Below, one piece after another: positions 17,433 to 48,750 of a stretch of 53,660 nucleotides of DNA (positions are counted from its first letter, which is position 1; every line of letters begins with the position of its first letter). Both the position numbers and the translations under genes were made by a program. A model generated the notes under the pieces. It saw only the letters and a list, made by a program, of their open reading frames with translations. It ran no database searches and was not told where the DNA came from. This stretch comes from Eubacteriales bacterium (GTDB lineage: Bacteria > Bacillota > Clostridia > Oscillospirales > CAG-272): positions 1 to 53,660 of the forward strand of contig JAZLBM010000110.1 of NCBI GenBank assembly GCA_045613705.1, written 5' to 3'.

Positions 17433-17458
17433 GAGGGTAAATTGACCTTTCTATGGGA

Positions 17459-18832: not shown

Positions 18833-18861
18833 GGTAATATATCCTTTCGCTTATATAAATT

Positions 18862-20798: not shown

Positions 20799-21638
20799 AT
20801 GCCGGAATTCAATAACAACAAAAACAGAAGCAAAGACAAGAAATATTACGACCGCAAAAAGCCTATTGAACGCCAAAGCCCCTCCGTCGCAGAGGAAGAG
20901 GGATGTGGTGCGATCATCGGCAGAAATGCGGTAAGAGAGCTTCTTCGTTCGGGACGTTCCATAGATAAAATCATGGTAAAAAGAGGCGAGCACGAGGGTT
21001 CTATCACCGTGCTTGTTGCGGAAGCCATCGAAAGAGGCATCCCCGTTATCGAGGTGGATAAGTCCAAGCTGGATGCCGTGTCCGGTTTTGCTCCCCACCA
21101 GGGCATCATTGCTATGGCGGCGGAAAAGGATTATTCCTCGGTCGAGGATATCTTGGCAATCGCCGAAGAGCGCGGAGAAAAGCCCTTGATCGTTATTTCC
21201 GACGGCATCACCGACCCATATAACCTGGGGGCACTCATTCGTTGCGCCGAAGGTGTAGGCGCTCACGGTCTGATCATTCCCAAGCGCCGCGCCACGGGTC
21301 TTACCCCTCTTGTAACAAAAGCGTCCGCGGGAGCCATTGAGCATCTCGCTATCGCTAAGGTGTCCAATATTGCATCCACCATCGAGACGCTCAAGAAATA
21401 CGGAATCTGGATCTACGCCGCGGAGGCCGGCGGAACCAACTATTTTGATACCGATTTCACGGGCGGTTGCGCCATTGTATTCGGTAGCGAAGGAAACGGC
21501 GTATCCAAGCTGGTTACCGAAAGAAGTGATTTCATTACGTCCATCCCTATGTATGGAAAGGTAAATTCCTTTAACGTTTCTACCGCCGCCGCCGTCATTC
21601 TCGCGGAGGCGTCCCGTCAGCAACGATTTGGAAAATGA
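20799..21638 (+). CDS. rlmB: 23S rRNA (guanosine-2'-O)-methyltransferase, TrmH/SpoU group 3 (RlmB-like)
   Basis: 279 aa. Basic N-terminal tail, L30e-like domain, SpoU methylase motifs (DPYNLGALIRCAEG, VFGSEGNGVS, SFNVSTAAAV). Confidence 0.85.
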   Translation: MPEFNNNKNRSKDKKYYDRKKPIERQSPSVAEEEGCGAIIGRNAVRELLRSGRSIDKIMVKRGEHEGSITVLVAEAIERGIPVIEVDKSKLDAVSGFAPHQGIIAMAAEKDYSSVEDILAIAEERGEKPLIVISDGITDPYNLGALIRCAEGVGAHGLIIPKRRATGLTPLVTKASAGAIEHLAIAKVSNIASTIETLKKYGIWIYAAEAGGTNYFDTDFTGGCAIVFGSEGNGVSKLVTERSDFITSIPMYGKVNSFNVSTAAAVILAEASRQQRFGK

Positions 21639-21666
21639 TTTTAATCCCGGGAAAGGAGTTTGTCGT

Positions 21667-24357: not shown

Positions 24358-24367
24358 GAAGTTACAC

Positions 24368-26221
24368 ATGAAAAATTACAGCTCCATTATGAAGTCGGTC
24401 GAAAAACCCGGACGGTATTCGGGCGGCGAATATAATCAGATCATTAAGGATAAAAATAAAGTAAAGGCAAGATGGGCCTTTTGCTTCCCGGATTCCTACG
24501 AGATCGGAATGTCCAACCTCGGTGTTCGCATCCTCTACGGCGTTTTGAATCAGGAAGAGGACATATGGTGCGAGCGCGTATACACCCCCTGGGTGGATAT
24601 GCAAGAGCAAATGAAAAAGCACAATCTTCCTCTCACCGCTCACGAAAGCAAAGATCCCCTTACCGAATTTGACATCGTAGGATTTACACTTCAGTACGAG
24701 ATGTCTTACACCAACGTGTTGAATATGCTGAAGTTGGCAGGTATTCCGCTTCGCGCGGCCGACCGTGGCGATGAATATCCCATTATCATCGGTGGCGGCC
24801 CCTGCGCTTACAATGCGGAGCCTGTTGCGGATTTCTTCGACTGCTTCTCCATTGGAGAGGGAGAAGAAATGCTTGTTGAGTTTACAAAGCTCTACATCAA
24901 GATGAAAGAGGAGGGAACCTATACCAAAAAGGCGTTCCTTCACGAGGCCGCTAAAACGGTAAGCGGAACCTACGTGCCCTCCTTCTATGACGTTTCGTAT
25001 AATGAAGATAACACCATTAAGGCATATACCCCTATCTATGACGATATCCCCACGCGCATTACTAAGCGCATTATCAAGAATATGGATAAGGTATATTTTC
25101 CCGACAAGGTAGTTATGCCCTATATTGAGACGGTACATGACAGAATTATGCTTGAGGTCTACCGCGGATGCATTCGCGGATGTCGCTTCTGTCAGGCGGG
25201 AATGGTGTACCGTCCCGTTCGTGAAAAATCGGCAGAGGTGCTTAACCGGCAAGCCCGTTGCCTTTATGAGTCCACCGGATATGAGGAGGTTTCTTTGACC
25301 TCGCTCTCCATCAGCGACTACACGGAGCTGGAATCTTTGACCGATAAACTTCTGTCCTGGACCGACGAGAATATGGTAAACCTCTCGTTGCCCTCGCTCC
25401 GTGTTGACAGTTTTACCAAGGAGCTTATGGATAAGGTGGCAAGCGTTCGTTCATCGTCGCTTACCTTTGCACCCGAAGCGGGAACGCAGCGCCTTCGTGA
25501 CGTTATCAACAAAAACGTGCGCGAGGACGATCTGCTTCGCGCGGTCAACGTAGCATTTGAGGCCGGAAAGAATCAAGTGAAACTCTACTTTATGATGGGT
25601 CTTCCCACTGAGCAGTTGAGCGACCTTGACGGCATTGCCGCGCTTGCCAAGAGTGTTGTGGATGCTTATTATCAAAATCCCAAGAGAAATAAAGCCCGAT
25701 CGCCTCAGGTAACCGTCAGTGTTTCCTGCTTCATCCCCAAGCCCTTCACCCCCTTCCAGTGGGAGCCTCAGGACACGAGAGAGCAGTTGCAAATGAAGCA
25801 AAAGTATCTGGCCGAGAAGATCACCGATCGCAAGGTCAGATACATTCATCACGATTCGGCAACCTCTCACATTGAGGCGGTTCTTGCGCGAGGCGACAGA
25901 CGCCTTTCCGCCGCCCTTGAGCTTGCTGCCGAGGAAGGCTTTATGTTCGATTCCTGGGATGAATTCTTCAATTATGAAAACTGGCTTTCTGTTTTTGAAA
26001 GAACGGGAATCGACCCCGCCTTTTACGCCAACCGCCGTTTTGGTTTTGATGAGGTCCTTCCTTGGGATATCATCGATTGTGGCGTAGATAAGAGCTTCTT
26101 CCGCCGCGAATGCGAAAAAGCATACGGCGAGAATACCACCCCCAATTGTCGCGAAAAGTGCAGTGGTTGTGGTGCCAATAAATTGGGAGGTGAACGTTCA
26201 TGTTGTCCCAAGAGCAAGTAA
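24368..26221 (+). CDS. B12-binding-domain radical SAM protein (TIGR03960-like)
   Basis: 617 aa. Radical SAM cluster motif CIRGCRFC (CxxxCxxC). The N-terminal half resembles a cobalamin-binding-like domain. Confidence 0.9.
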   Translation: MKNYSSIMKSVEKPGRYSGGEYNQIIKDKNKVKARWAFCFPDSYEIGMSNLGVRILYGVLNQEEDIWCERVYTPWVDMQEQMKKHNLPLTAHESKDPLTEFDIVGFTLQYEMSYTNVLNMLKLAGIPLRAADRGDEYPIIIGGGPCAYNAEPVADFFDCFSIGEGEEMLVEFTKLYIKMKEEGTYTKKAFLHEAAKTVSGTYVPSFYDVSYNEDNTIKAYTPIYDDIPTRITKRIIKNMDKVYFPDKVVMPYIETVHDRIMLEVYRGCIRGCRFCQAGMVYRPVREKSAEVLNRQARCLYESTGYEEVSLTSLSISDYTELESLTDKLLSWTDENMVNLSLPSLRVDSFTKELMDKVASVRSSSLTFAPEAGTQRLRDVINKNVREDDLLRAVNVAFEAGKNQVKLYFMMGLPTEQLSDLDGIAALAKSVVDAYYQNPKRNKARSPQVTVSVSCFIPKPFTPFQWEPQDTREQLQMKQKYLAEKITDRKVRYIHHDSATSHIEAVLARGDRRLSAALELAAEEGFMFDSWDEFFNYENWLSVFERTGIDPAFYANRRFGFDEVLPWDIIDCGVDKSFFRRECEKAYGENTTPNCREKCSGCGANKLGGERSCCPKSK

Positions 26222-26934
26222 AAGCATGTTATCGCCGCAAGGAATGGCCGCTTCTGGAGGCACCCGTCAACGTAAGAGTGAAATTCCAAAAGATAGGCGA
26301 CCTTCAGTACATTTCCCATTTGGATCTTCAACGTACGCTTCACAGAATTCTTGTGAGAGCAGGAATTCCGATGTGGTATACCAAGGGCTTCAACCCTCAC
26401 GCAAAGATCGTCTTCTCGTCGCCTCTTTCTGTTGGTGCGCAAAGTGTTTGCGAGATGGTTGACATCCGTATCGACAGAGATATGCCTTGTGAAACGATTA
26501 AGGAGCTCTTGAATCGCGAGGTTACCGACGAGTTAAGAATTCTTGACGTATACGTTGCTGAAACCAAGTTCTCGGACATTGCGTGGGGCGCGTATGAGAT
26601 CGACATCCACGAGGAGGGAATTGCAAGCAAGGCGAGCTCCATTATGGCAATCACAAGCGAGCCCGAGCTTCCGGCCACGAAAAAGACAAAGTCGGGAGAG
26701 AAGGAAATCGATATTCTCCCCTTGATCCGTTCTATTACTACAGAGACCAACGAGGACGAGGACTATGTAAAAATCAAAACCGTCTTGAGTCTCGGATCTG
26801 ACAGTTATCTTAACCCCGAGCTCTTGCTTACTGTTTTGAAGCAGAAGACAGGAATCCTTGCCTCCGAAGACGCTTGGTATTCCATTATGCGAACCGCCTC
26901 CTTTATCGAGGACGGTATCACCGAATTCAGATAA
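26200..26934 (+). CDS. radical SAM-associated DUF2344 protein (TIGR03936-like)
   Basis: 244 aa. FQKIGDLQYISHLDLQRTLHRILVRAGIP is typical of this family. GGGAGGTG RBS. Overlaps the radical SAM gene by 22 nt. Confidence 0.8.
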   Translation: MLSQEQVKACYRRKEWPLLEAPVNVRVKFQKIGDLQYISHLDLQRTLHRILVRAGIPMWYTKGFNPHAKIVFSSPLSVGAQSVCEMVDIRIDRDMPCETIKELLNREVTDELRILDVYVAETKFSDIAWGAYEIDIHEEGIASKASSIMAITSEPELPATKKTKSGEKEIDILPLIRSITTETNEDEDYVKIKTVLSLGSDSYLNPELLLTVLKQKTGILASEDAWYSIMRTASFIEDGITEFR

Positions 26935-33333: not shown

Positions 33334-34215
33334 ATGATCGAACGCTTGGCATATGCAAAAATCAATCTGTTTCTTGACGTCGAAGGAATTCGCGACGACG
33401 GATATCATAATATTTTGAGCGTTATGCAAACGGTAAGCTGGGCCGACAAAATCACAATTCAGCAATGCGAAGAGCCCGGTATCCGTTTATTCTGCACAGA
33501 AAAGTCTATTCCCACCGACAACGCCAACACCGCTTATCGCGCGGCCGAGTTATTCTTGTCATATGCAGAAATCCCTATGGGCCTTCAGATCCATATCGAA
33601 AAGCACATTCCTTCCTCCGCAGGTCTCGCCGGAGGAAGCTCTGATGCCGCCGCCGTTCTTCTCGGCTTGAATAAAATGACGGGATCGCCATTCTCCTCAG
33701 AGCAATTATTGGAGCTCGGCGCCAAAATCGGCGCAGACGTTCCGTTTTGCATGGTTGGAGGTACACAAACAACTACCGGAATCGGAAACGTTATGGAGCC
33801 GTTCCCATCTATGCCCCGATGCTATCTCATATGCGCCAAAAAGGGGGATGGAGTTTCCACACCCGCGGCATATCGTGCCATCGATGAGCAGAATGACTTC
33901 TTCCGTGCACCGGACGTGCAATATAATAAGTTGAATTGTCTCCAGAATGGGTTTGCGCTCGGCGACTTGAGTTGTGTCAAAGACGGAATCTTCAACATTT
34001 TTGAAAAAAAGATTGAAAAGACGCACCCGGACGTCAGTCTCTTGAAAAAAGCTTTACTGGATTCGGGCGCAATCGCGGCAATGATGAGCGGAAGCGGACC
34101 TTCCGTATTTGGTATTTTCGCTGACGAAAAGAAGGCAGAACTGGCACGAGACACACTTCAAAATCTTGGCGCAACGTGCGCCGTATGTACACCTGTTGCA
34201 AGATTCGAGGGCTAA
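33334..34215 (+). CDS. ispE: 4-(cytidine 5'-diphospho)-2-C-methyl-D-erythritol kinase
   Basis: 293 aa. AKINLFL start and GHMP kinase motif PSSAGLAGGSSDAAA. Confidence 0.9.
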   Translation: MIERLAYAKINLFLDVEGIRDDGYHNILSVMQTVSWADKITIQQCEEPGIRLFCTEKSIPTDNANTAYRAAELFLSYAEIPMGLQIHIEKHIPSSAGLAGGSSDAAAVLLGLNKMTGSPFSSEQLLELGAKIGADVPFCMVGGTQTTTGIGNVMEPFPSMPRCYLICAKKGDGVSTPAAYRAIDEQNDFFRAPDVQYNKLNCLQNGFALGDLSCVKDGIFNIFEKKIEKTHPDVSLLKKALLDSGAIAAMMSGSGPSVFGIFADEKKAELARDTLQNLGATCAVCTPVARFEG

Positions 34216-34217
34216 AT

Positions 34218-35150
34218 ATGAGCATAATAACAGTTACGTTGAGCCCCGCCATTGACGTTCATTGTCATCTTCCGGAGCTTGTACCTGAGAAAGAACACCT
34301 TGCTATGGTTTCTTCGCGCGATTTCGGCGGCAAAGGCGTCAATATTTCTCGCGTTTTGACTGCAAACGGCGTAGAGAATACCGCGTTTGTTGTTATGGGT
34401 AAAGAAAGCGAAAGGGAATTCTCGGAAGGTCTTTCAAAAGAGGGAATCACCCATCGAGGTTTTCTTGTCGAAGGAAGAATCAGAGAAAACATAACCCTCC
34501 ATACAGATGACGGCAAAGAAACGAGAATCAGTTTCGCAAGTCCTGCCAAAATCAATGATGGCCTTTGGAGAAAAATCGAAAGCGACCTGCTCGCATCCGT
34601 CACCGAGGGCTCTGTTGTAACCATGACCGGGCGTGTGCCCGATGGGATTTCTATCGCCTCCGTCAAAGACACGCTTCTGCGTTTGAAGTCGCTTTCAATC
34701 AAAACCGTTATCGATTCCAAGTCCTTTTCCCTTGACGACTTAATTGCCTGCAAGCCTTGGCTTATCAAGCCTAACGAGGAAGAGATCGAGCAATATGTCG
34801 GCAAAAGAGTGACATCCCTCTCGGATGCAATAACAGCTGCAAAACGCCTGTATTCCGACGGCATCGACAACGTTATGATCAGTCTTGGCGCGCAAGGCGC
34901 AGTTTTAGTATGCGATAGCGGCTGCTATTGTGCCACGCCGCCGACAGTACAGGTAAAATCCACCGTGGGCGCCGGAGATAGCACGATTGCCGGATTTTTG
35001 ACAGGGATTGCAAGGGGAATGAGCCCCAATCAAGGTCTTGCATTTGCCGTATCTTGCGGAACTGCTTCGTGCATGACAGATGGAACCGCTGCGCCTCTTG
35101 AAGAAAATATTGCCACGATATTCGAGAAAACCACAATAAAGAGTATATAA
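34218..35150 (+). CDS. 1-phosphofructokinase-family hexose-phosphate kinase (PfkB family)
   Basis: 310 aa from ATG 34218, 2 nt after the ispE stop. PfkB signatures GGKGVN and GAGDSTIAGF. Confidence 0.85.
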   Translation: MSIITVTLSPAIDVHCHLPELVPEKEHLAMVSSRDFGGKGVNISRVLTANGVENTAFVVMGKESEREFSEGLSKEGITHRGFLVEGRIRENITLHTDDGKETRISFASPAKINDGLWRKIESDLLASVTEGSVVTMTGRVPDGISIASVKDTLLRLKSLSIKTVIDSKSFSLDDLIACKPWLIKPNEEEIEQYVGKRVTSLSDAITAAKRLYSDGIDNVMISLGAQGAVLVCDSGCYCATPPTVQVKSTVGAGDSTIAGFLTGIARGMSPNQGLAFAVSCGTASCMTDGTAAPLEENIATIFEKTTIKSI

Positions 35151-35178: not shown

Positions 35179-35652
35179 CTATTTCAGTATATTCTTTACC
35201 GTTTGAACAACGGTTGCGTTTTGCACAGGATCTAAAATGGTATAAACCACACACAGTCCCACCGTAAAAACTTTTGCATTTTCAAACTTAGGATACTCGT
35301 TGGCGTTATAAACGATACCATTTTTGAATTGTTCTTTTCGTTTATCAAGATACGCACCAAGTCGTTCAACACAAGGCTTGACATCTTTCGCTTCTTCCAC
35401 AAGGAACACACCGAATTCACTGAAATTTGTGGAGTCGGCACACACCACGATGTGACTCTTACAAGCGTTTTGAAGAGAGGAAAACTCACGCTTCATCAAG
35501 TAATCGGTATTATCAACGTATCCGAATTCGGCGGGAACCGCAGATTGGATCGCCTTGGATAACGTTTCGGCCGAAATACTTTGCGCGTTGGCATAAGAAG
35601 CAGAGAAAAGCATCAAACTGACCGCAACGGCAAACAAACAGAGCTTCTTCAT
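35179..35652 (-). CDS. secreted DUF4358-like protein
   Basis: 157 aa. Signal peptide MKKLCLFAVAVSLMLFSASYANA. The ATG overlaps the stop of the upstream SGNH hydrolase gene (ATGA). The family name is from recollection. Confidence 0.7.
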   Translation of the reverse strand: MKKLCLFAVAVSLMLFSASYANAQSISAETLSKAIQSAVPAEFGYVDNTDYLMKREFSSLQNACKSHIVVCADSTNFSEFGVFLVEEAKDVKPCVERLGAYLDKRKEQFKNGIVYNANEYPKFENAKVFTVGLCVVYTILDPVQNATVVQTVKNILK

Positions 35653-36497
35653 GTCTCATGCTCCTCGGGATGCGCATGCGTACGAACATACTGCAAAACG
35701 GCTTGCAGACCTGCCTCGTTAAGGTGGATCCCGTCACCGCCGTTATCATAATCATAGAGAAGATAGCCGTTGGCGTCTGACAAGACCGACGCCGTATCCA
35801 AGTATTTGAGGCGATATTCTGTTGCCAGGTCCTTGAGCCAGGAATTGCACAACGCGATCCGCTCTGGTGTATACGCTGAAATTTTGCAGGCTTCGGCAAC
35901 GGGGAAGAGGGATTGCAGAATCACGTTCGTTTGTGCAGACGCACCTACAATCGTATTGAGGAGGATCCTGTAGCATTGCTTGAACTCATCCTCGGAATAA
36001 TAGGAAGCACCATTATTGAGCCCCAACGTAACGACCAAATATTCGGGTTGCTTTTTTCGAAGCGCATCGTATATCGTCTGCGCCGTACCGTCATCGGGAT
36101 AATAAAGTCGGGTTTGATTTATGGTTGGTGACAACGATAGCGTGCCGGCGCACCGAACGGAACCGTCCGTGCACGTAGCTCCTGTCCACACTTGAGTCGT
36201 TGCTTCACCGTCGGGGAGAAGACCGTAGCGCTGAAGACCATAGGTCGTAGATTCTCCAAAGAAGATGATTTTCCGAATATATTCATCGCCCGCGTCAACC
36301 GTTTCCGAAAGGACACACGAATCACTATTGCATTCGGCTGCTGTATCGGCAAGCCCATCTGCGCGGCTTAGATCAATCGCCTGTAGCTGTTTGCTCCCGC
36401 TGATTTTACCCAGGCAAAGAAACAACGGTAAAAGCGTAAGTGAAAGAAGGAGGATCGTAAAAACAGAAAGAATAAAGGAGTTCAGCTTCTTTTCCAT
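35649..36497 (-). CDS. SGNH/GDSL-family hydrolase with N-terminal membrane anchor
   Basis: 282 aa. N-terminal TM helix, block I FFGESTTYG (Ser nucleophile), block III GLNN, block V GGDGIHLN (DxxH). Confidence 0.8.
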   Translation of the reverse strand: MEKKLNSFILSVFTILLLSLTLLPLFLCLGKISGSKQLQAIDLSRADGLADTAAECNSDSCVLSETVDAGDEYIRKIIFFGESTTYGLQRYGLLPDGEATTQVWTGATCTDGSVRCAGTLSLSPTINQTRLYYPDDGTAQTIYDALRKKQPEYLVVTLGLNNGASYYSEDEFKQCYRILLNTIVGASAQTNVILQSLFPVAEACKISAYTPERIALCNSWLKDLATEYRLKYLDTASVLSDANGYLLYDYDNGGDGIHLNEAGLQAVLQYVRTHAHPEEHET

Positions 36498-36547
36498 ATT
36501 TCACCTTTTGTTTAAGATTAAATATGCAGGAAGCATATTCGCTATTA

Positions 36548-36985
36548 TTATTTCTTGTTTTCGTTTTTATATACGCTTACGTATTGTGTGCAATCTTGGG
36601 ACTGCTTCTTTCTGGAAGCAAAGAACAAGGCATAAACCACGGAACAAATCACGTAGAGAAGCGTAAAGAAGAAAAAGAGAATCAGAGCAACCGTTCCGTT
36701 TATGGTCTCTTTGTGAGGTAAACAGATGAAAAGACCTGCGGATGCTAAACAAACAACGTAACGAACAAGCGAACGCGCGAAGCCGCTCAGCTTGCTATTC
36801 AAAAGCACTCCGTTGGCCAATGAAATTGTAAAGCAAAGCGGATAAAACAAAAGAACAACAAAAACGGACATATTGGCGTTCGTATCGTATACACCGATCA
36901 TAATGAGCGAATATAAAAGAGTCAGCCCACAGAAACCGTAACAGGCGGAAGCGAGGGCGCGTTTTAAAACATTGGAAAATGGCAT
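36548..36985 (-). CDS. hypothetical integral membrane protein
   Basis: 145 aa with about 4 hydrophobic helices. AAAGG RBS. No family recognised. Confidence 0.6.
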   Translation of the reverse strand: MPFSNVLKRALASACYGFCGLTLLYSLIMIGVYDTNANMSVFVVLLFYPLCFTISLANGVLLNSKLSGFARSLVRYVVCLASAGLFICLPHKETINGTVALILFFFFTLLYVICSVVYALFFASRKKQSQDCTQYVSVYKNENKK

Positions 36986-37089: not shown

Positions 37090-37118
37090 TTGACAAGGCC
37101 CTCTCTCCGTGATATAAT
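37090..37118 (+). promoter_or_regulatory. consensus sigma-A promoter of the TerB-N/ATPase/helicase cassette
   Basis: Perfect TTGACA (37090-37095), 17-nt spacer, TATAAT (37113-37118), 37 nt upstream of ATG 37156, which has a GAAAGGAGAG RBS. Confidence 0.7.
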
Positions 37119-37155
37119 TATAAGATAAGAAACCCCTGCAGAAAGGAGAGAAGCA

Positions 37156-38751
37156 ATGGCAGACGAAAGCAAAAGCCGCAAGGATGAATTGGACGCGTTC
37201 TGGGACATCGGACGACTGGTCCCACAAAAGAAAAAAGCACCGCAAACCGTTACGCAAAGACCGCAAAGAGTAGCTCCTCGAGCAGTATCCGTGCAGCCGC
37301 AACGAGCACCTGCTCCCGTTTCGCGCGATGAAAATCGCCTCACACGACAAAAGCCCGCAGAGCAAGCACCTGCTTTTGTCGAGCACCGTGACTTTTCTTC
37401 CTTTCTTGCAAACGTCAAGGTTACGAACTGGAAGAGCTCATATGATTATTATGAATTTTTCTGCAAGCAAGCGGCCGCCCTTCATAAAAAACACGGTGCG
37501 GATTGCCCCGAGACAACGCCTGTCCCTTTCTTTTCCTACGTAGCACAATATTCTCAGTTAAGTCGCAGACAGCTGGAATGGTATCTTTGGTGGCGCGAAT
37601 GTGTAAGAAACGGTCGATATCTCAAAACCGATGCCAGCTATATCAATCTTCTTATATTCGAGCTTATTAATCTCGGAAACTCGATTGATACACGCCAATC
37701 TTTGGATGTTTTGATAGGACTTTGGCAGCACTATAAAGAGGATTATCCACAGCTCAACAGTACGCTGGGCGAATGGATATGCGATTATAGTCTGATCCAC
37801 AACATCCCCATTCGCTTCCCGGACGCGCGCATTGGCATTGAACTTCCTTCCGTCACTTCACTGCCTGAGGCGTTCTATAATTTTGACATCAAAGATAAAC
37901 CGCTGTTTGCCAAGCTGCTTCTGTCATCTTGCTGTTCTCATAACTACAAAAAGAGCAAATTTTACAAGGATGAAGCCGTCGCGATTTACGATCAACATGT
38001 CCCCGGCGCCGTATATTATCTTCTCGAGCAAACCGACATCGATGCAATCCCCAATAAGCTTCCCAAAAAGACGGTTACACGAATGGCATATACCGGAGCA
38101 TTGTGCTCCTATAAAGCCAGAAAACATATTGAGGTGGAGTACGTCTCTCTCTCCGATTCGCAAGAAATCAAGTCCCGTCTCGGAGACATTGTAAAGTATG
38201 CCGAAAACAAGGTTCGCGCCTATCTTGGCATTCGTTCGCGCCTTGGAATTCGGGAGATCGATCCCCGTTCCGCTTCTATCATTGACGATTATTTTGCGCG
38301 TCATCTGGAAACCGTAGGGGGGACAAAGCCGCCGGAATACGAGAAGCTATACGACGTTTCGGATACCCAATTTTCCCTGACCTCCGCGCTTGAAATTGAA
38401 AAGCGATCCTGGGAAATCACAGAACGTCTGGTGGAAGCCTTTGAGGAAGAGGCTCCCGATATTCCGCCCCCAACCATTTCTGTTCACCCCATCATCGTTC
38501 CTGTTACCGAAAGCGGTTCAGAGCAAGAAGCTTTTATGCATTGCATCAAGGATCACAGCGATTTTTTTGCTCTCGTTTTAGCCGAAAATGGCAAGGAGCA
38601 GATCGCCTATGCGAAGAAATCGGGGGCCTTGCCGGAGGCCATTGTCGATATGATAAACGAAGCGGCCGTCGATTGCTTTGGCGATATTTTGATAGAAGAA
38701 GCGGATATTGGATACCGCATAATTGAAGAATACCGTTCCATATTTGAATAG
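37156..38751 (+). CDS. TerB-N / TerB-C domain protein (SngA-like)
   Basis: 531 aa. TerB-N signature FFSYVAQYSQLSRRQLEWYLWWRECVRNGRYLKTDASYINLLIFELINLG. TerB-C-like tail GALPEAIVDMINEAAVDCFGDILIEE. P/Q/R-rich N-terminal tail. Confidence 0.8.
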   Translation: MADESKSRKDELDAFWDIGRLVPQKKKAPQTVTQRPQRVAPRAVSVQPQRAPAPVSRDENRLTRQKPAEQAPAFVEHRDFSSFLANVKVTNWKSSYDYYEFFCKQAAALHKKHGADCPETTPVPFFSYVAQYSQLSRRQLEWYLWWRECVRNGRYLKTDASYINLLIFELINLGNSIDTRQSLDVLIGLWQHYKEDYPQLNSTLGEWICDYSLIHNIPIRFPDARIGIELPSVTSLPEAFYNFDIKDKPLFAKLLLSSCCSHNYKKSKFYKDEAVAIYDQHVPGAVYYLLEQTDIDAIPNKLPKKTVTRMAYTGALCSYKARKHIEVEYVSLSDSQEIKSRLGDIVKYAENKVRAYLGIRSRLGIREIDPRSASIIDDYFARHLETVGGTKPPEYEKLYDVSDTQFSLTSALEIEKRSWEITERLVEAFEEEAPDIPPPTISVHPIIVPVTESGSEQEAFMHCIKDHSDFFALVLAENGKEQIAYAKKSGALPEAIVDMINEAAVDCFGDILIEEADIGYRIIEEYRSIFE

Positions 38752-38761
38752 GAGGATAGTT

Positions 38762-40102
38762 ATGCAAAACAATACACATACAGTTCCCAAAAGGATCCTC
38801 TCGTCGCTGATTGCGTCGGTGTCCGCCGGTGTAGTGCCGCGCGCAGGAGCTCCGTACATGGCCATAGGAAGAAATGACGAGATCTCGGCACTCTTGAGCG
38901 ATCTGGAGCGCATCAGCGAGGGAGAGGGCGCCATTCGCTTCATTATTGGTCGTTACGGAAGCGGAAAGAGCTTTTTGATCCAGTTGGTTCGCGGATATGC
39001 CTTGGAAAAGGATTTCATCACCGCCGACGCCGATCTCTCACCCGAACGCCGTCTTTACGGAACAAACGGAAGCGGAATCGCCACCTACCGTGAGCTCATC
39101 AAAAACATGGCGTCCAAGTCTTCTCCCGATGGGGGCGCACTCGCCAAGTTGATCGCCAAGTGGATCACCTCGCTTCGCGTTCGTCTTATGGAGCAGGGAA
39201 TCACAGAAGAGTCTTCTGCTTTTATGACCAAGCTTTCGACAGAAGCGGCGCTTGCCCTGAAGGATATTGAATTCCTTGTGGGCGGTTTTGACTTTTCCCG
39301 CGTGATTTCTGAATACTACAGAGCTTACATCGAAGGAAATGACGAAAGACAGAGCGCCTGTCTCCGTTGGCTTCGCGGCGAATACAGTAACAAGACCGAA
39401 GCCAGACACGAGCTTGGTTTCCCGGTATCAGTCATTATCAACGATGAAAATTGGTACGACTTTATCAAGCTTTGGGCGGTTCTGGTAAGAAAAATGGGAT
39501 ACCGCGGTCTTGTGGTCTTCATTGATGAATGTGTGAATCTGTATAAGATCAGCAATCGCATCAGCCGCGAAAACAATTACGAAAAGATCCTGTCCATGTT
39601 TAACGATACGCTGCAGGGACACGCCGAAGGCCTTTCCATCGTTTTTGCCGGAACGCCTCAGTTCCTTGACGATACACGCCGCGGTCTCTTCAGCTATGAA
39701 GCGCTTCGCAGTCGACTTTGCGACAGCCGCTATGACATGCAGGGCGTCAAAAATCTCAACTCCCCGATCATTCGCCTTATGCGCTTGAATGACAACGAGT
39801 TGTTCGCGCTTCTGCGCCGAATGACCGATCTCTTTTCGCAGTATCACGGTTGGAATGCTACCTTGACCGATGAGGAGATCGCCACGTTCCTTCAGTCCAA
39901 TCTCAATCGCATAGGAAGCGATACAATGGTCACCCCAAGAGAGATCATTCGCGATTATATGACGGTGTTGAACATTCTCCTGCAAAACCCCGAAATCTCA
40001 TTTTCGAGCATTATGAAAAACAAGGAGCAAGACCGCCCGTCGCCCGTCGAAGCCCCCGCAGAGCCCACGAGAAGGATCAGCGCCGCTGACATCAATTTTT
40101 AA
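38762..40102 (+). CDS. DUF2791 / BREX BrxD-like P-loop ATPase (SngB-like)
   Basis: 446 aa from ATG 38762 (AGGAGGA RBS, 10 nt after the upstream stop). Walker A GRYGSGKS (aa 63-70) and Walker B LVVFIDE. The N-terminal VPRAGAPYMAIGRNDEISALL block is typical of the family. Confidence 0.8.
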   Translation: MQNNTHTVPKRILSSLIASVSAGVVPRAGAPYMAIGRNDEISALLSDLERISEGEGAIRFIIGRYGSGKSFLIQLVRGYALEKDFITADADLSPERRLYGTNGSGIATYRELIKNMASKSSPDGGALAKLIAKWITSLRVRLMEQGITEESSAFMTKLSTEAALALKDIEFLVGGFDFSRVISEYYRAYIEGNDERQSACLRWLRGEYSNKTEARHELGFPVSVIINDENWYDFIKLWAVLVRKMGYRGLVVFIDECVNLYKISNRISRENNYEKILSMFNDTLQGHAEGLSIVFAGTPQFLDDTRRGLFSYEALRSRLCDSRYDMQGVKNLNSPIIRLMRLNDNELFALLRRMTDLFSQYHGWNATLTDEEIATFLQSNLNRIGSDTMVTPREIIRDYMTVLNILLQNPEISFSSIMKNKEQDRPSPVEAPAEPTRRISAADINF

Positions 40103-40117
40103 GAGGAGGATAGATTT

Positions 40118-42337
40118 GTGACCAAAGCAGATATACTGTTTGAACGGTTTCCCGAATATATCCAACGCTTTATTTATGAAAATCAGTGGAGCGAGCTTCG
40201 ACAGGTTCAGCTTGCCGCGGCAGACAGTCTTTGGAACGGCGAGAACAATCTCCTGCTTTGCTCGTCAACGGCCAGCGGAAAAACAGAGGCAGTCTTCTTT
40301 CCCATATTAACTGAGCTTGAGGAACGTCCCGCAAATAGTATCGCCGTCCTTTATATTGCGCCGCTGAAGAGCTTGATCAACGACCAATTTCTCCGAATGG
40401 AAGAACTCTTGGAGGAAAGTGGCGTTCCCGTCTTTCATTGGCACGGAGACGTTTCGTCTTCTCATAAAAAGCAGCTTCTCGAAAACCCTCGCGGAATCCT
40501 TCAGATCACGCCTGAGTCTTTTGAGTCTATGCTGCTCAACCGCTCCAATGACGCTGTACGCCTTTTCCACGATCTGCGATATATTATTATCGACGAGATC
40601 CACGCCCTCATCGGAAGCGACAGAGGCAGCCAAATTCTTTGTCAGCTGTCACGCCTGGGAAGACTGATCGGCAGGCATCCTCGTCGTATCGGTCTTTCCG
40701 CTACCATTGGCGAGGCTGAAACAGTGGCAAAATGGATGGCGCAAGGAAGCAACCGAGGAGTAGATATTCCCGATCTCGCCCAAAATCGAATCGCCTGGCG
40801 TCTTGGCCTTGAGCATTTTTACATTCAGGATCAAAGCTTCAATCAAACAGAGCGGGGAAGACCCAAGACCGGCGAATCTCAAAAAGCCAATTTCGACGCA
40901 GGCTTCGAATATATGTATGACTGCGTCAAGGACACCAAGTCTCTTGTTTTCTCCAATTCGCGCGAGGAAACCGAATACGTCACCGCCACGATGCGCCAAA
41001 TTGCCAAAAAACGGGGCGACAAGGACGTGTTCCTGATACATCACGGAAATTTGTCTGCCAGTCTCCGTGAAGAGGCGGAAGGGAAAATGAAGGGCGAGGA
41101 CGAGCCCTTTGTCACCTGTGCCACAGTAACAATGGAGCTTGGCATCGATATAGGAAAGCTTCAGCGCGTGCTCCAGTACGGATCCCCCAATACGGTTTCC
41201 GGATTTCTGCAAAGACTGGGACGCTCGGGCCGAAGAAACGATCCTCCCGAAATGATGATGGTCTTTCGCGAGGACGAGCCATTGCCGGATGCACCGTTGC
41301 CGCAGTTGATCCCGTGGGATCTTTTGCGAGCAATTGCCATCGTTCAGCTCTATATTGAGGAGCGTTTTATTGAGCCTCCAAGCATAAAAAAGATGCCTAT
41401 GAGTCTTCTTTTCCACCAGACACTCAGCATGATTTGCGCGAGCGGCGAGCTGACGGCACGCCAACTGGCCGAGCGCATCTTGGCGCTCCCACCATTCTTC
41501 AACGTGGAAAAGGAAGATTACCGCACGCTTCTTGTATCAATGGTCAACAACGACCTGTTGGAAATGACAGAAGATGGAGGCCTCATCATCGGCCTCGAAG
41601 GTGAAAAATTGATCAACAGCTTCAAGTTTTATGCCGTTTTCAAGGATAGCGAGGATTTTACGGTTCGATGTTCATCCGACGAGATCGGAACCATCACCAC
41701 GCCACCGCCTCCCGGAGACAGATTTGCCTTAGCGGGGCGTGTGTGGGAGGTCGAAGAGGTGGACACCTCGCGCCGTTTGGTCTACGTGCACGAAGTGGAA
41801 GGCAAAATGGAAGTGTCCTGGCCGGGAGATTACGGCGAGATCCACACACGAATTCTGGAGCGTATGAAGCGAGTTCTTGAGGAAGAGATCTGCTATCCGT
41901 ATTTAATGGAGAATGCGATCACACGACTCACCGACGCCCGCATTCTCTCAAAAAACACGCATCTCACTACAAAATCGTTAGTTAGCCTCGGCGGAATTAC
42001 AAAATGCTGGTTCCCATGGCTTGGAACGCGTTCCTTCCGCACTCTTGTCAGATATCTCAAAGTAAACGCCAACAAATTCGGAATCAGCAACATCTCCTAT
42101 GACGGATGCAACTATATCTGCTTCCGCTTGGATCGCGGAACGGAAGAGCAGTTGATTGCAAAGATGAAGGAAGACGTTCTCAAGAGAGGAATCCGCTGTG
42201 AAGAGTTAATTTTTTCCGGCGAAACCCCCATTATTGACAAATATGATCCTCATATTCCTTCCGAGCTTTTGCAAAAAGCATATTCCGTTGACCGACTTCG
42301 TGCCGACGAGGTTGAAAAACGAATTTTATCTATGTAA
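40118..42337 (+). CDS. Lhr-like SF2 DExH-box helicase (SngC-like)
   Basis: 739 aa from GTG 40118 (GAGGAGGA RBS). Motif I TASGKT (aa 51-56), Ia APLKSL, II DEIH, III SAT, VI QRLGRSGRR. A ~365-aa C-terminal region follows. Confidence 0.85.
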   Translation: MTKADILFERFPEYIQRFIYENQWSELRQVQLAAADSLWNGENNLLLCSSTASGKTEAVFFPILTELEERPANSIAVLYIAPLKSLINDQFLRMEELLEESGVPVFHWHGDVSSSHKKQLLENPRGILQITPESFESMLLNRSNDAVRLFHDLRYIIIDEIHALIGSDRGSQILCQLSRLGRLIGRHPRRIGLSATIGEAETVAKWMAQGSNRGVDIPDLAQNRIAWRLGLEHFYIQDQSFNQTERGRPKTGESQKANFDAGFEYMYDCVKDTKSLVFSNSREETEYVTATMRQIAKKRGDKDVFLIHHGNLSASLREEAEGKMKGEDEPFVTCATVTMELGIDIGKLQRVLQYGSPNTVSGFLQRLGRSGRRNDPPEMMMVFREDEPLPDAPLPQLIPWDLLRAIAIVQLYIEERFIEPPSIKKMPMSLLFHQTLSMICASGELTARQLAERILALPPFFNVEKEDYRTLLVSMVNNDLLEMTEDGGLIIGLEGEKLINSFKFYAVFKDSEDFTVRCSSDEIGTITTPPPPGDRFALAGRVWEVEEVDTSRRLVYVHEVEGKMEVSWPGDYGEIHTRILERMKRVLEEEICYPYLMENAITRLTDARILSKNTHLTTKSLVSLGGITKCWFPWLGTRSFRTLVRYLKVNANKFGISNISYDGCNYICFRLDRGTEEQLIAKMKEDVLKRGIRCEELIFSGETPIIDKYDPHIPSELLQKAYSVDRLRADEVEKRILSM

Positions 42338-42369
42338 AAAAGGTGTCTTGCGACACCTTTTTCTTTTTA
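42336..42369 (+). terminator. Rho-independent terminator closing the cassette
   Basis: AAGGTGTC-TTGC-GACACCTT hairpin followed by TTTCTTTTT, immediately after the helicase stop. Confidence 0.75.
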
Positions 42370-42442
42370 TAGCAATTTCTTTGACGAATTTTCGCTCTTT
42401 GCGCCGCAAATAATAAAGCAGAACAAAAAGAAAGGGGATTCT

Positions 42443-43225
42443 ATGAAAAGATTTCTTATTTTCTCCCTATGCGCGTTGTTTTTAACAAGTGCACTGACTT
42501 ACGGAGCACCCGCCCAAGCCGAAGGCAAATGCTACAGCTGGTACTGTGTAAGAAACAGAGATCATAAACAACCGCGACTCGATAGCGAAGTTTCTTTTAT
42601 AGAACAGTACAACGGATACCACGTTGATAAGCGACACGGAGATGACTGTTCGGAGAAAATCGTGTATTTAACCTTCGATGCAGGCTATGAAAACGGGAAC
42701 GTAGAAAAAACACTGGACGTTCTCAAGGAAGAACAAGTTCCCGCGGCCTTTTTTATCTTGGGGCACTTGGTAATGTCAAACACAGATCTTGTTACAAGAA
42801 TGTTCCAAGAAGGGCACACCGTTTGCAATCACACTTATTCGCATAAGGATCTTACGTCTTGCTCAAAAGAAGAATTCGCTAATGAACTTGCACGACTCGA
42901 GGCGGTTTATCAGGAATACACAGGGAAAGCCATGGCAAAATATTATCGCCCTCCGGAGGGGAAATTTTCGCAGGCAACTATGCAATATGCGGACGAACTT
43001 GACTATAAAACTATATTTTGGAGCTTTGCTTATGCCGACTGGGATAACAATAAGCAAATGTCTCCGGGCGATGCAAAAAACAAGATTTTATCCAATATCC
43101 ACAACGGCGCGATTCTGCTGCTTCATCCTACCTCAAGCACCAACGCCATAATACTCGGCGACGTGATTCGCGAATTGAAAGCACAAGGCTATGCATTTGG
43201 CACATTGGATCAGCTTACAGTATAA
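42443..43225 (+). CDS. pdaA: delta-lactam-biosynthetic de-N-acetylase-like polysaccharide deacetylase
   Basis: 260 aa. Signal peptide and NodB domain (LTFDAGYENG, CNHTYSH). The YSWYCVRNRDHKQP opening resembles PdaA orthologues. Confidence 0.75.
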   Translation: MKRFLIFSLCALFLTSALTYGAPAQAEGKCYSWYCVRNRDHKQPRLDSEVSFIEQYNGYHVDKRHGDDCSEKIVYLTFDAGYENGNVEKTLDVLKEEQVPAAFFILGHLVMSNTDLVTRMFQEGHTVCNHTYSHKDLTSCSKEEFANELARLEAVYQEYTGKAMAKYYRPPEGKFSQATMQYADELDYKTIFWSFAYADWDNNKQMSPGDAKNKILSNIHNGAILLLHPTSSTNAIILGDVIRELKAQGYAFGTLDQLTV

Positions 43226-43895
43226 TCGCTTATTGCGCATTTTTTGCTTCCTCACGGCAATGCTTTTAGTTGCCGCGCTTTCGATCCCCACACAAGCCGA
43301 GCAGGGAAGCAGGGACGTTTATCGGAAGCACGAGAACAGCGAAATGAAGATTTCGCTGACCTTTGATGATGGTCCTCACCCTATCCTGACACCTAAAATT
43401 TTAGAAATTCTGGCGCGATATCAGATCAAAGCCACCTTTTTCCTGGTCGGCGAAAACGTGAAGAATTATCCGACCGTTGTGGAGCAGATCCTTACCGAAG
43501 GCCACGAGATCGGCAATCACACCTTTTCTCACGATCATATCAACGCGCAGGAAATTGAGGATTGTGAACAAGCAATTTATGAAATAACCGACTACAAAAC
43601 AAAACTTTTTCGTCCTCCGCAAGGCTTTATCGATGAAACGGTAAAAAGCATGTCGCACTCGCTCGGATACGACATCATTCTTTGGAGCATCGATACCAGA
43701 GACTGGGATCACACGCCGCCCCGGCAAATTTGCGATTTGGTCATCCGCGAAATCACTTCAGGAAGTATTATTCTGATGCACGATTATATAGGCCATCATA
43801 GTCCTACGCCACAGGCGCTTGAACAACTTATCCCGGCAATAATAGCTCTCGGATATCAATTTGTCCCCGTCAGCGAGCTAATAGGCACAAATTAA
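43191..43895 (+). CDS. polysaccharide deacetylase (NodB homology domain)
   Basis: LTFDDGPHP and GNHTFSH motifs. The start is uncertain. ATG 43191 overlaps pdaA by 35 nt. In-frame TTG 43233 would give a cleaner signal peptide (RIFCFLTAMLLVAALSIPTQA). Confidence 0.8.
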   Translation: MHLAHWISLQYNRLLRIFCFLTAMLLVAALSIPTQAEQGSRDVYRKHENSEMKISLTFDDGPHPILTPKILEILARYQIKATFFLVGENVKNYPTVVEQILTEGHEIGNHTFSHDHINAQEIEDCEQAIYEITDYKTKLFRPPQGFIDETVKSMSHSLGYDIILWSIDTRDWDHTPPRQICDLVIREITSGSIILMHDYIGHHSPTPQALEQLIPAIIALGYQFVPVSELIGTN

Positions 43896-45769: not shown

Positions 45770-45846
45770 ATGGCATTCCTTTGTGCGTTATAAATAAAAA
45801 ACTTCTCACATAAGATAGAGTAAAGTAAATGAACAAGAGAGGCTTT

Positions 45847-46122
45847 ATGACATACATATCCACCGCAAAAGAACGATGCATCGTCCTTGGAACCTATTTG
45901 GTTGAAAACAATTCAACCGTACGATCCGCTGCGCAAAAATTTGATATCAGCAAAAGCACAGTCCACAAAGACGTCACACAAACGCTCAAGAAGATCAATC
46001 CGTCACTATATGCAGACGTGAAGCGCGTACTGGACAAAAACAAGCAAGAGAGACACTTGAGAGGCGGCGAAGCAACGCGACAGAAATATAAGCACAATAA
46101 ACTCAACGATAGTAATCAATGA
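45847..46122 (+). CDS. spoIIID: sporulation transcriptional regulator SpoIIID
   Basis: 91 aa from ATG 45847 (AGAGAGG RBS). The HTH region TVRSAAQKFDISKSTVHKDV and HLRGGEATRQKYK closely match SpoIIID. The ORF-track start at 45829 would add 6 aa. Confidence 0.9.
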   Translation: MTYISTAKERCIVLGTYLVENNSTVRSAAQKFDISKSTVHKDVTQTLKKINPSLYADVKRVLDKNKQERHLRGGEATRQKYKHNKLNDSNQ

Positions 46123-47249: not shown

Positions 47250-47285
47250 ACCGCTTGAAGGATTTTCCTTCAAGCGGTTTTTTCT
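47250..47285 (+). terminator. Rho-independent terminator
   Basis: CCGCTTGAAGG-ATTTT-CCTTCAAGCGG hairpin followed by TTTTTTC. Confidence 0.8.
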
Positions 47286-47845
47286 TACTCAAACACTTTT
47301 CGGCATTGCGCACCGCTCAATGCAAGCTTGAGCGTTTCGGGTAATCTACTGAAATTAGCAACCAAGGAATGAGGTTTGTTTTGCGGATCGTCCTGGATCA
47401 TGGGCACAAAATAAACACATTTTCTCGATAATAGCGTACCTATGTTCCGAAGGTTTGCCGACATAGCATCGTTGGATGCCAAGGCAATTACCAAGGGTCT
47501 ATCGCTCCTCAAATGCGCCTTTGCCGCCATACAAACAGCTGTATCCGTAAGGCCATTGGCAAGCTTGGCTAACGTATTGCCGGTACAGGGGCTGATCACC
47601 AAGGCATCCAGTTGAATTTTCGGGCCAAGGGGCTCAGCGCCGACAATCGTGTGAATGATTTCCTTGCCGCAGAGCTCACGAACCCGCGCGATCAAATCGT
47701 TTGCTGTCCCGAACTTTGTATTCGTGCCGTACACACATTCGCTCATAATCGGCTGTATATCATATCCTTCGGTCAATAACCGCTCCATAAGTTCGACGGA
47801 TTTTTGATGGGTACAAAATGACCCACAAAACGCATATCCGATCAC
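47285..47845 (-). CDS. dpaB: dipicolinate synthase subunit B
   Basis: 186 aa. Flavoprotein-like IGYAFCGSFCT start and a CTGNTLAKLANG motif, typical of SpoVFB. Confidence 0.9.
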   Translation of the reverse strand: MIGYAFCGSFCTHQKSVELMERLLTEGYDIQPIMSECVYGTNTKFGTANDLIARVRELCGKEIIHTIVGAEPLGPKIQLDALVISPCTGNTLAKLANGLTDTAVCMAAKAHLRSDRPLVIALASNDAMSANLRNIGTLLSRKCVYFVPMIQDDPQNKPHSLVANFSRLPETLKLALSGAQCRKVFE

Positions 47846-48750
47846 GACGTCACCCCTTCCTCCAGTATGTGTATCACAGTCTTGGCAACGATTTCGCCTG
47901 CCGTTTTAGGAGAATATTTTCCCGGGAGCGACTGCACCGAATGGATGGTTAACCCGTGTTCTTTTGCCGCGCAAAGATCGATTCCCCCGGGGGCAGAAGC
48001 GAGATCAATAATTACTGTCTCGCGGGAAATTTTTGTAACGACCGATTCGTCGATTACCCACGCAGGAACCGTATTGAATATTACGTCATAGCCCTCCGAA
48101 AGCTTTTCAAGTGAATTTTTGCCATCACGAATGCGTATTGGCAGACTCCTCATGCCTGCGTTTTCTATCAAAGCAAGATCCGCGCTTTTCCGCGCGGCCA
48201 CCGTCACATTGGCATCCAGGCATTTCAGCTTTTGCGCCAGCACTTTTCCTATGCGTCCATATCCTACAACGGCTATTTTGGCGCCGGCAATAGTAATGGG
48301 CAGTTGACTCATTGCGAAAGCAATCGCTCCCTCTGCCGTAGGGACGGCATTTTTGATTTGGAACTCTTCCCTTTCATAATAATCTATAACGCGGAAGCCT
48401 TTTTCTTCTATCATTTTTTTGATTGCCGGGTTAAATCTACCGCCAAATATCGGCGTGTTTCCCGGAAGAAGATCCACAATTTTTGCCAATTTTACACTTT
48501 CCGGCGAATGCAACAACGGGCAGTTGATACGAACACCGTCTCCCGAAACCGGAAGGGGCAAAATCAGTGCTGAGCAACCAGAAATAGCTTCGCCCCAGTT
48601 TTCACAAATCTCAAAGACCTCCTTTTCCGCCTCAAATCCCGCATCAATTCCCCAAAGACTGACACAAAAACCTTGCTGCGCCAGAACTCTCGCCGCGGAA
48701 AGCTGACGCAAATCCCCACCCAATAATGCAAGCTTCATATTCACAGGCAT
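47842..48750 (-). CDS. dpaA: dipicolinate synthase subunit A
   Basis: 302 aa. LLGGDLRQ N-terminus and NAD-binding VVGYGRIGK, typical of SpoVFA. Overlaps dpaB by 4 nt. Confidence 0.9.
   Translation of the reverse strand: MPVNMKLALLGGDLRQLSAARVLAQQGFCVSLWGIDAGFEAEKEVFEICENWGEAISGCSALILPLPVSGDGVRINCPLLHSPESVKLAKIVDLLPGNTPIFGGRFNPAIKKMIEEKGFRVIDYYEREEFQIKNAVPTAEGAIAFAMSQLPITIAGAKIAVVGYGRIGKVLAQKLKCLDANVTVAARKSADLALIENAGMRSLPIRIRDGKNSLEKLSEGYDVIFNTVPAWVIDESVVTKISRETVIIDLASAPGGIDLCAAKEHGLTIHSVQSLPGKYSPKTAGEIVAKTVIHILEEGVTS

Follow-up and report, generated by a model that had tools for sequence, protein, structure and literature searches.

A vertically inherited Shango (sngABC) operon at a conserved chromosomal locus in a lineage of gut Clostridia

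When genes that belong to an anti-phage defence family are found in a bacterial chromosome, are they a cassette that arrived recently or a part of the chromosome that has long been there? We address this question for sngABC, three genes on the plus strand (37156-42337) of a 53,660-nucleotide (nt) stretch of DNA, referred to here as the window, from contig JAZLBM010000110.1 of a Eubacteriales bacterium (assembly GCA_045613705.1). An earlier reading of the sequence alone, the original prediction, named these genes as Shango (sngABC) and described them as an "autonomous" cassette, "accessory-looking" and "wedged" between envelope genes to which it has no relation. The name is well supported by our analysis and the description is not: sngABC is a long-resident chromosomal operon that has been inherited vertically at one locus in this gut Clostridia lineage and is not freshly acquired.

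Shango was reported by Millman et al. in 2022 (E. coli) and by Johnson et al. in 2023 (P. aeruginosa PA14, cDHS1), and its anti-phage activity was modest and broad. The system has been validated in Proteobacterial hosts, as the original prediction stated. It had also called the trigger, mechanism and effector of Shango unknown, as they are still described in the literature searched, and papers up to 2025-26 call the mechanism unclear. DefenseFinder and PADLOC surveys already list Shango as a matter of routine in Clostridia and in genomes from the rumen and gut, and survey papers that mention it extend to Clostridium perfringens and to rumen and gut collections of metagenome-assembled genomes. 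The operon described here adds a family member and is not a new kind of system, and its interest is moderate rather than high because Shango is already named, catalogued and widely detected.

Do the three genes belong to Shango? Profile hidden Markov models (HMMs) from PADLOC place the first protein with SngA (PDLC03958, 3.9e-47; protein amino acids (aa) 78-529 against model positions 74-522 of 528), the second with SngB (PDLC03959, 3.1e-164; model positions 4-420 of 439) and the third with SngC (PDLC03960, 1.3e-235; model positions 6-713 of 720). The SngB model outscores BrxD (9e-49) and the SngC model outscores BrxHI (1.9e-127). Because all three models are matched near full length, membership is well supported, and 37156-42337 can be classed as a Shango system by the HMM definition in use. 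The adjacent same-strand triad that Shango requires is present: the genes stand 10 and 15 nt apart and follow the canonical order A-B-C. The likeness extends to the same three components, the same order, three models matched end to end and intact catalytic motifs in SngB and SngC. The earlier sngABC assignment is borne out by these matches. The domains expected with it were also recovered by profile searches: Pfam TerB_N and TerB_C in gene 1, PF10923 in gene 2, and DEAD and Helicase_C with a weak Lhr winged helix in gene 3.

The location of the operon is less typical of Shango. In contrast to the systems of Millman et al. and Johnson et al., the locus lies outside any defence island or mobile element, at a fixed chromosomal site where it is vertically inherited and highly conserved. 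Neither a defence-island or mobile-element location nor a patchy distribution among close relatives, both of which are typical behaviour and not a defining feature, was found here. Upstream of the operon there is a divergent block on the minus strand (35179-36985) that encodes a DUF4358 protein (35179-35652), an SGNH/GDSL hydrolase (35649-36497) and a 145-aa membrane protein (36548-36985). Downstream, on the plus strand (42443-43895), are a pdaA-like gene (42443-43225) and a second polysaccharide deacetylase gene, pda2 (43191-43895; Pfam Polysacc_deac_1). These tandem genes overlap by 35 nt. The Pfam matches agree with the flanking genes named in the original prediction: upstream, on the minus strand, those for a membrane protein and an SGNH hydrolase, and downstream a pdaA-like gene.

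Loci of relatives were sampled by SngA identity (L084 71%, L085 58%, L086-L089 55%, L090 51%, L092 45%, L093 43% and L094 40%). In seven other lineages (L084, L085, L086, L090, L092, L093 and L094) sngABC is found at the same locus, between the DUF4358-SGNH-membrane gene block and pdaA-pda2. The upstream block adjoins sngA in all seven, and further upstream the order in relatives is usually TSCPD-PDT-HtpG-AI-2E-IspE(-PfkB). On the other side, pdaA-pda2 follows sngC in L085, L086, L090, L093 and L094, either directly or after a single inserted gene, and is itself followed by genes for a membrane protein, SpoU and SpoIIID; L092 has no pdaA downstream of sngC. In L094 (6840-15829) the inner eight-gene block is intact while the outer flanks are wholly different, with GlyRS on one side and ClpX-ClpP-Tig on the other. 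The sng genes of L095, where SngA is 36-37% identical, are in an unrelated context.

The sequences at the locus have diverged together. Across loci, identity is 68-86% for SngB, 64-87% for SngC, 72-78% for SpoU, 55-71% for pdaA, 47-65% for PfkB, 46-66% for IspE and 36-71% for SngA. SngB and SngC are the most conserved and slowest-evolving genes at the locus, with the lowest nonsynonymous divergence (dN, 0.09-0.14), and SngA is the fastest of the three. The proportion of synonymous differences (pS) is saturated in sng and flanking genes alike (0.61-0.85); ratios of dN to synonymous divergence (dS) were discarded as dS was saturated in every comparison, and only dN and pS were used. In pairwise comparisons SngC diverges in step with the flanks, with Spearman rho values of 0.84 for SGNH, 0.89 for pdaA and 0.78 for IspE. 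This correlation and the equal saturation of pS indicate co-divergence and not recent transfer. The guanine-plus-cytosine (GC) content of the sng operon (0.495, against 0.482 for the window) and GC at third codon positions (GC3) are close to those of the neighbours and show no compositional anomaly.

These results bear directly on the view that sngABC is an autonomous, mobile accessory cassette for defence that was acquired recently and landed among envelope genes unrelated to it. A promoter and a terminator enclose the unit as a self-contained whole, homologous plasmid triads are flanked by insertion sequence (IS) elements and a relaxase gene, and the slot between sngC and pdaA takes different single genes in relatives, all of which would suit such a cassette. 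It would also suit this view that the operon is absent beside pdaA in more distant relatives: scans anchored on pdaA, which covered 67 species representatives and 14 metagenome loci, found no sng genes within reach. These scans returned only distant relatives (pdaA at most 68% and SpoU about 50% identical), and for this reason no clean "empty site" in a close relative was obtained. Against the cassette stand the same locus in seven other lineages at SngA identities down to 40%, divergence and synonymous saturation that follow the flanks, a promoter that is conserved in situ, neighbour-like GC and GC3, and the lack of repeats nearby. No integrase, transposase or other PADLOC-positive gene was found in the genes nearby or in the ten largest open reading frames (ORFs) besides them. 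The comparison of the SGNH-pdaA interval in relatives, which the original prediction had proposed as a check on itself, gave fixed neighbours to a large extent, the outcome it had named as counting against it. We consider recent acquisition to be largely refuted and very improbable.

Several observations concern changes at the borders of the operon. The slot between the sngC terminator and pdaA (window 42370-42442) is empty in the window. It holds a LOR-family gene in L085 (7952-8428), a class-I methyltransferase gene in L086 (15246-16181) and, on the opposite strand, a nucleotidyltransferase gene in L090 (14380-15039). A Peptidase_M23 gene is inserted between the membrane gene and sngA in L086 (8906-9904). 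In a distant clade (L002 and L006-L014), a block homologous to window 20751-26934, which includes a radical-SAM protein gene (24368-26221), is inverted directly upstream of pdaA, and the neighbourhood has therefore been rearranged between genera. This indicates an ancient inversion or rearrangement in distant relatives with a breakpoint at the upstream boundary of pdaA.

Within the species, intact variants are present in several samples. Two 1.2-kb contigs from other samples (about 98% DNA identity) carry the same membrane-gene/promoter/sngA junction, and eight contigs encode three more intact versions of SngA (96-97% identical), which vary chiefly in their disordered linkers. Exact-protein look-ups gave no match for SngB (both starts) or pdaA, and the 145-aa membrane protein alone was on record, on two 1.2-kb contigs.

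The Shango family is mobile elsewhere, in contrast to this locus. SngB homologues that are 40-49% identical are found on 697 plasmid records, 542 of which are predicted to be conjugative, in hosts that include Klebsiella, Salmonella, Escherichia, rhizobia, Bacillus, Paenibacillus, Clostridium estertheticum and haloarchaea. A PADLOC-positive triad on a Klebsiella plasmid has IS1 and IS66 elements on its flanks, and the triad on C. estertheticum plasmid pCF002-344 (L097) adjoins a relaxase gene and IS110. In L097 an 848-aa UvrA-like ABC ATPase (9596-12142; PADLOC mad3-like, 5e-68) is encoded on the same strand 17 nt after sngC, and could either represent a fourth component or belong to a neighbouring system.

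How is the operon expressed? The ORF list and the sequence show three closely packed genes on one strand with a single promoter and a single terminator. The promoter (37090-37118) is of the sigma-A type and matches the consensus at 12 of 12 positions: the -35 element TTGACA (37090-37095) and the -10 element TATAAT (37113-37118) are separated by a 17-nt spacer that includes an extended -10 TG (37110-37111), and a GATAAG sequence (37124-37129) is conserved downstream of the -10 element. No other 12/12 match is present within 35.5-44 kb. Across eight orthologous loci TTGAC of the -35 element, TGnTATAAT of the extended -10 element and the downstream ATAAG are invariant, and the intergenic DNA is otherwise about 41% identical. 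The invariance of the hexamers in eight lineages amid upstream DNA of such low identity argues that the promoter is real and is held at consensus strength.

Translation signals were read from the sequence. A GGAG ribosome-binding site (RBS; 37145-37148) lies 7 nt 5' of the ATG of sngA, which encodes 531 aa with TerB_N and TerB_C (37156-38751; PADLOC SngA, Pfam). The GGAGG RBS of sngB (38751-38755) overlaps the stop codon of sngA, and translational coupling of the two genes is therefore likely. From its ATG, sngB encodes a 446-aa BrxD-like ATPase (38762-40102; PADLOC SngB, Pfam PF10923). A longer start at TTG 38723 was rejected, as the orthologous loci give products of 442-455 aa from the equivalent downstream start. 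The GAGGAGG RBS of sngC (40103-40109) precedes a GTG start and a 739-aa Lhr-Core/BrxHI-like helicase of superfamily 2 (SF2; 40118-42337; PADLOC SngC, Foldseek). The operon ends at an intrinsic terminator (42337-42369) in which an 11-bp hairpin, AAAAAGGTGTC-TTGC-GACACCTTTTT (42337-42362), is followed by a T-run. The three ORFs with their 10- and 15-nt gaps, strong RBSs, perfect promoter and GC hairpin with T-run are as originally predicted. Long antisense ORFs within the operon (e.g., 40649-41464 and 39428-39985 on the minus strand) were rejected as shadows, with translated conservation of 45-52% versus 81-87% for the sense frames.

SngB is a predicted BrxD-like ATPase of the ORC/Cdc6-type AAA+ class. 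It matches Pfam PF10923 (formerly DUF2791, now BrxC_BrxD) at 7.7e-152 and has a Walker A motif, GRYGSGKS (aa 63-70; 38948-38971), and a Walker B motif, VVFIDE (aa 251-256; 39512-39529), that are invariant in orthologues. The match and the Walker motifs agree with the DUF2791/BrxD-like P-loop NTPase that had been proposed for gene 2. On the NCBIfam BrxD model (NF033438) SngB reaches 166 bits against a cut-off of 350, and it falls outside the BrxD equivalog.

The third protein, SngC, carries the SF2 helicase motifs I (TASGKT, aa 51-56; 40268-40285), II (DEIH, aa 159-162; 40592-40603), III (SAT, aa 194-196; 40697-40705) and VI (QRLGRSGRR, aa 365-373; 41210-41236). These motifs are invariant across 53 homologues, and they and the Walker motifs of SngB were all present as listed in the original prediction. 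The AlphaFold2 (AF2) model of SngC (predicted local distance difference test score (pLDDT) 81.4, predicted template modelling score (pTM) 0.81) comprises RecA1-RecA2, a winged helix (aa ~428-499), a small beta-barrel (~514-559) and an alpha/beta C-terminal domain (~577-739). The top Foldseek match of the model is M. smegmatis Lhr-Core (5v9x; E 5.2e-28, TMq 0.66, 824 aligned columns) over the whole length, followed by MrfA (6znp) and then Hel308/Hjm/Brr2, and the closest solved structures by sequence are also MrfA and Lhr. The RecA1-RecA2-winged helix-domain 4 fold of Lhr-Core is present in the model. The Lhr-like SF2 helicase proposed for gene 3 is supported by this fold and by the DEAD, Helicase_C and weak Lhr winged-helix matches. 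No nuclease-like domain was found in SngC by fold comparison of the whole model. The earlier remark that no nuclease or toxin domain is recognisable holds, as none was found and the whole SngC model superposes on Lhr-Core.

SngC shares its whole-length fold with the Lhr-Core and MrfA (YprA) repair helicases and differs from them in several respects. The sequence identity is only about 18%, the long C-terminal extension of Lhr is absent, DUF1998 (the C-terminal domain of MrfA) is not among the Pfam matches of SngC, and SngC is always encoded with SngA and SngB. It lies outside the NCBIfam Lhr and ligase-associated DEXH equivalogs, scoring 214 bits versus 850 and 100 bits versus 1496, respectively. 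SngC has been placed with BrxHI, DruE and DpdJ in a clade of SF2 helicases associated with defence (PMC12278908).

Is sngBC a piece of a bacteriophage exclusion (BREX) system? BrxD and BrxHI form a tightly linked dyad in type-2 BREX, and it has been proposed that BrxD, an ORC/Cdc6-type AAA+ ATPase, loads or activates the helicase (PMC12839542). BrxHI in the same 2026 analysis has RecA1-RecA2, a winged helix, a small beta-barrel and an Lhr-CTD-like C-terminal domain, as in SngC (PMC12839542). The pairs of type-2 (Pgl) and type-6 BREX are homologous to SngB-SngC and have the same order. It could be supposed from this dyad, and from the BrxD and BrxHI matches given above, that the operon is a remnant or satellite of type-2 or type-6 BREX bereft of its partners. 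The Sng models score far above the Brx models, SngB is below the BrxD equivalog cut-off, and the partner is a TerB_N/TerB_C protein with which the pair is conserved as a unit. The genes of the BREX core (brxC, pglX and pglZ, with pglW for type 2) were found neither near the operon nor in the ten largest ORFs besides the neighbouring ones. A BREX origin of this kind is exceedingly improbable.

SngA is the component that departs most from the published systems. Pfam recovers TerB_N (6e-16) and TerB_C (9e-7), and the TerB domain proper (PF05099) gave no match even at E<=10. The original prediction was correct on TerB-N and TerB-C and imprecise in that SngA is without the TerB domain itself. This is a difference from the Shango of Millman et al. 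and Johnson et al., in which TerB is a descriptive feature that falls outside the HMM-based definition. SngA here is a short form, predicted to be soluble, that lacks TerB and a transmembrane (TM) helix; no TM segment was found in SngA, SngB or SngC. The AF2 model of SngA (pLDDT 85.7) has an N-terminal helix and motif (aa 1-25), a disordered P/Q/R-rich linker (26-72), a structured core (73-430), a second linker (431-455) and a C-terminal helical domain (456-531). It has no neighbour in the PDB by Foldseek at E<=1e-3, and weak local matches to LysR-type winged helices (probability <=0.44) were given no weight. The PDB sequence search gave no solved relative, and PHROG families gave no match, for SngA or SngB.

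SngA is the variable module of the Shango family. On the Klebsiella plasmid SngA (PADLOC SngA 2.6e-104) has 769 aa, an N-terminal TM helix and TerB_N, TerB (PF05099) and TerB_C, in contrast to the 531-aa soluble protein of the window. This conclusion follows because the two SngA proteins have no BLASTP similarity while SngB (41% identical) and SngC (31%) align end to end. The 533-aa SngA of the C. estertheticum plasmid also lacks a TerB domain, like that of the window. In the three closest relatives with complete operons SngA diverges much faster (55-71% identity) than SngB and SngC (81-87%). A profile search with SngA gave 3155 clusters, formed at 50% identity, of which 938 have E<=1e-30; in most of the clusters the match begins at profile positions 1-13.

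Two short conserved peptides, at the N-terminus of SngA and the C-terminus of SngB, are each separated from the folded domain by a variable, disordered linker. In SngA the motif is ELDAFWDIGRLVPQK (aa 11-25; 37186-37230), and an alignment of 66 sequences (35-71% identity) gives the consensus ELDxFWDIxxLxPxK with D13, F15, W16, L21 and P23 invariant. The tail of SngB, RRISAADINF (aa 437-446; 40070-40099), is conserved in eight orthologues as (r)KISAaDIxF after a variable linker. Both lie outside the Pfam and PADLOC matches, and they may be motifs for docking between subunits.

TerB_N and TerB_C are also part of the vocabulary of other systems, namely the TerB-containing defence systems Bunzi (BnzA) and Dionysus (DinB) and the ter tellurite-resistance cluster. 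The sngABC operon differs from these in that a TerB domain is lacking, no partner is a transmembrane or pore-forming protein and TerC, TerD and TerZ are missing from the neighbourhood, and it does not belong to the Ter cluster, as no Ter-family genes are found among the neighbours and no TerB domain is found in SngA. The "membrane surveillance" idea proposed for Bunzi/Dionysus-type systems finds no support in the sequences at sngABC.

What might the operon do? From the membership, operon anatomy, motif integrity, folds, solubility and evolutionary pattern we infer that complex formation, helicase loading and interference would be as follows. SngA, SngB and SngC would form a constitutively expressed cytoplasmic surveillance complex for nucleic acids. 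SngB would oligomerise on ATP and load or activate SngC, which would act as a 3'-to-5' translocase of the Lhr/BrxHI type on single-strand-containing or aberrant DNA. Candidate substrates are phage replication or recombination intermediates and RNA:DNA hybrids. Specificity or regulation would be supplied by SngA, the fastest-diverging subunit, which is probably tethered through its own ELDxFWDIxxLxPxK motif and the C-terminal tail of SngB. Since the operon encodes neither a nuclease nor a toxin, interference would arise through the action of the motor, which would strip or unwind intermediates of replication or recombination, or through delivery of DNA to host nucleases. The evolutionary stability suggests that the system is entrenched in the lineage and may also serve host DNA maintenance. 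Taken as a whole, we think it probable that sngABC is a constitutive chromosomal Shango operon, vertically inherited at one locus in a deep, uncultured, spore-forming clade of gut Clostridia, that acts as such a helicase-loader surveillance complex.

The same evolutionary pattern can be used to argue that SngABC is primarily a housekeeping module for DNA repair or replication stress here, and that its likeness to Shango reflects common ancestry and not a role in defence. The fixed locus across deep divergence, the conservation of SngB and SngC above that of essential neighbours, the steady expression implied by a conserved consensus sigma-A promoter and the lack of a defence island or mobile genetic element are all in favour of this, as is the finding that, among solved structures, SngC is nearest to two repair helicases, MrfA and Lhr. 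A 2012 comparative-genomics paper by Anantharaman, Iyer and Aravind, cited in the Millman preprint, also links Ter-dependent systems to DNA processing in its title. On the other hand, all three proteins score best on Shango models of a family with demonstrated anti-phage activity, the family is abundantly plasmid-borne elsewhere, and the much faster evolution of SngA than of SngB and SngC is as expected in an arms race. The absence of the operon from the pdaA neighbourhood in the 67 and 14 more distant relatives means that it is not universally essential. A primarily housekeeping role is the main alternative and, in our judgement, unlikely.

It might also be proposed that the operon is a functional link in a larger envelope or spore-cortex module, for example one in which a perturbation of the cell wall or membrane is coupled to a DNA response. 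The eight-gene block stays together in L094 despite its wholly different outer flanks, and sngA shares a divergent promoter region with the membrane-protein gene. The triads of L095 and of plasmids have unrelated neighbours, membrane segments are lacking from SngA, SngB and SngC alike, and L092 has no pdaA downstream; the adjacency is explicable by slow rearrangement alone. We regard an envelope module as highly unlikely.

Several points weigh against a defence complex of the kind preferred here. Long-term vertical inheritance under very strong purifying selection and outside a defence island is atypical of defence and weakens the case for defence as the selected function at this locus. The loader and motor roles are assigned by analogy alone, and the role of BrxD-BrxHI is itself a proposal. 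The functional equivalence of this SngA to the canonical TerB-containing form is uncertain, since the name-giving TerB is absent and there is no BLASTP similarity. No experiment on a Firmicutes Shango was found in the literature searched; the original statement that no test of a Clostridial version was known stands to this extent and is imprecise in that Shango of Clostridia has already been surveyed in silico. A caveat also attaches to ASCERTAINMENT, as the syntenic loci were located through SngA and are hence unable to show absences within the clade. A flank proxy was used in which SGNH orthologues that are full length and at least 60% identical were taken, and the longest contig of each cluster was compared with those listed for the SngA and SngC clusters. 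Lengths matched Sng-bearing contigs exactly in 5/5 contigs of at least 50 kb and in 6/7 of at least 20 kb; this proxy is indirect, rests on the best 120 matches of each list and bears on the closer SGNH orthologues, not the more distant ones. By this measure sngABC appears to be fixed among the closer members of the clade, and more distant families appear either to lack it or to carry it at another genomic position.

Other features of the window were also noted. Orthologues of spoIIID (45829-46122) and of the dipicolinate synthase genes dpaB/dpaA (47285-48750) are found downstream of the deacetylases, and are consistent with a spore-forming host. Four large ORFs of 498-909 aa on the plus strand (7019-8536, 12988-15312, 17453-18949 and 21628-24357) have no Pfam match at E<=1e-5 and no PADLOC match, and counterparts of the 909-aa ORF in related loci are only about 24% identical. 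A tRNA-Val (GAC) on the plus strand (6864-6940) is the sole Rfam/ARAGORN match in the window. The ORF for a PfkB-family kinase (34176-35150, plus strand) has its GTG start at 34176 inside ispE; the calls of 309-310 aa in relatives place the start near 34218, just past the ispE stop codon.

What would a resident Shango operon mean for the family? A bolder version of our reading, which we find doubtful, is that the chromosomal Shango described here is an entrenched, effectively core complex for genome maintenance or immunity. A TerB-less soluble SngA would be tethered by motifs to the loader-helicase pair, under stronger constraint than essential neighbours throughout the history of the lineage, and the mobile TerB/TM proteobacterial forms and the chromosomal form would be functionally divergent branches of one ancient DNA-processing module. 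If this is true, the chromosomal branch would be a clean, nuclease-free model for what Shango senses. The minimal, soluble version without TerB speaks against an essential part for TerB or for membrane association in the core mechanism. The two terminal peptide motifs are candidates for subunit docking and are easy to mutate. Finally, a "defence system" with the behaviour of a core operon, one that keeps its synteny, diverges together with its flanks and is better conserved than IspE, raises the question of whether some Shango systems serve in the maintenance of host DNA.

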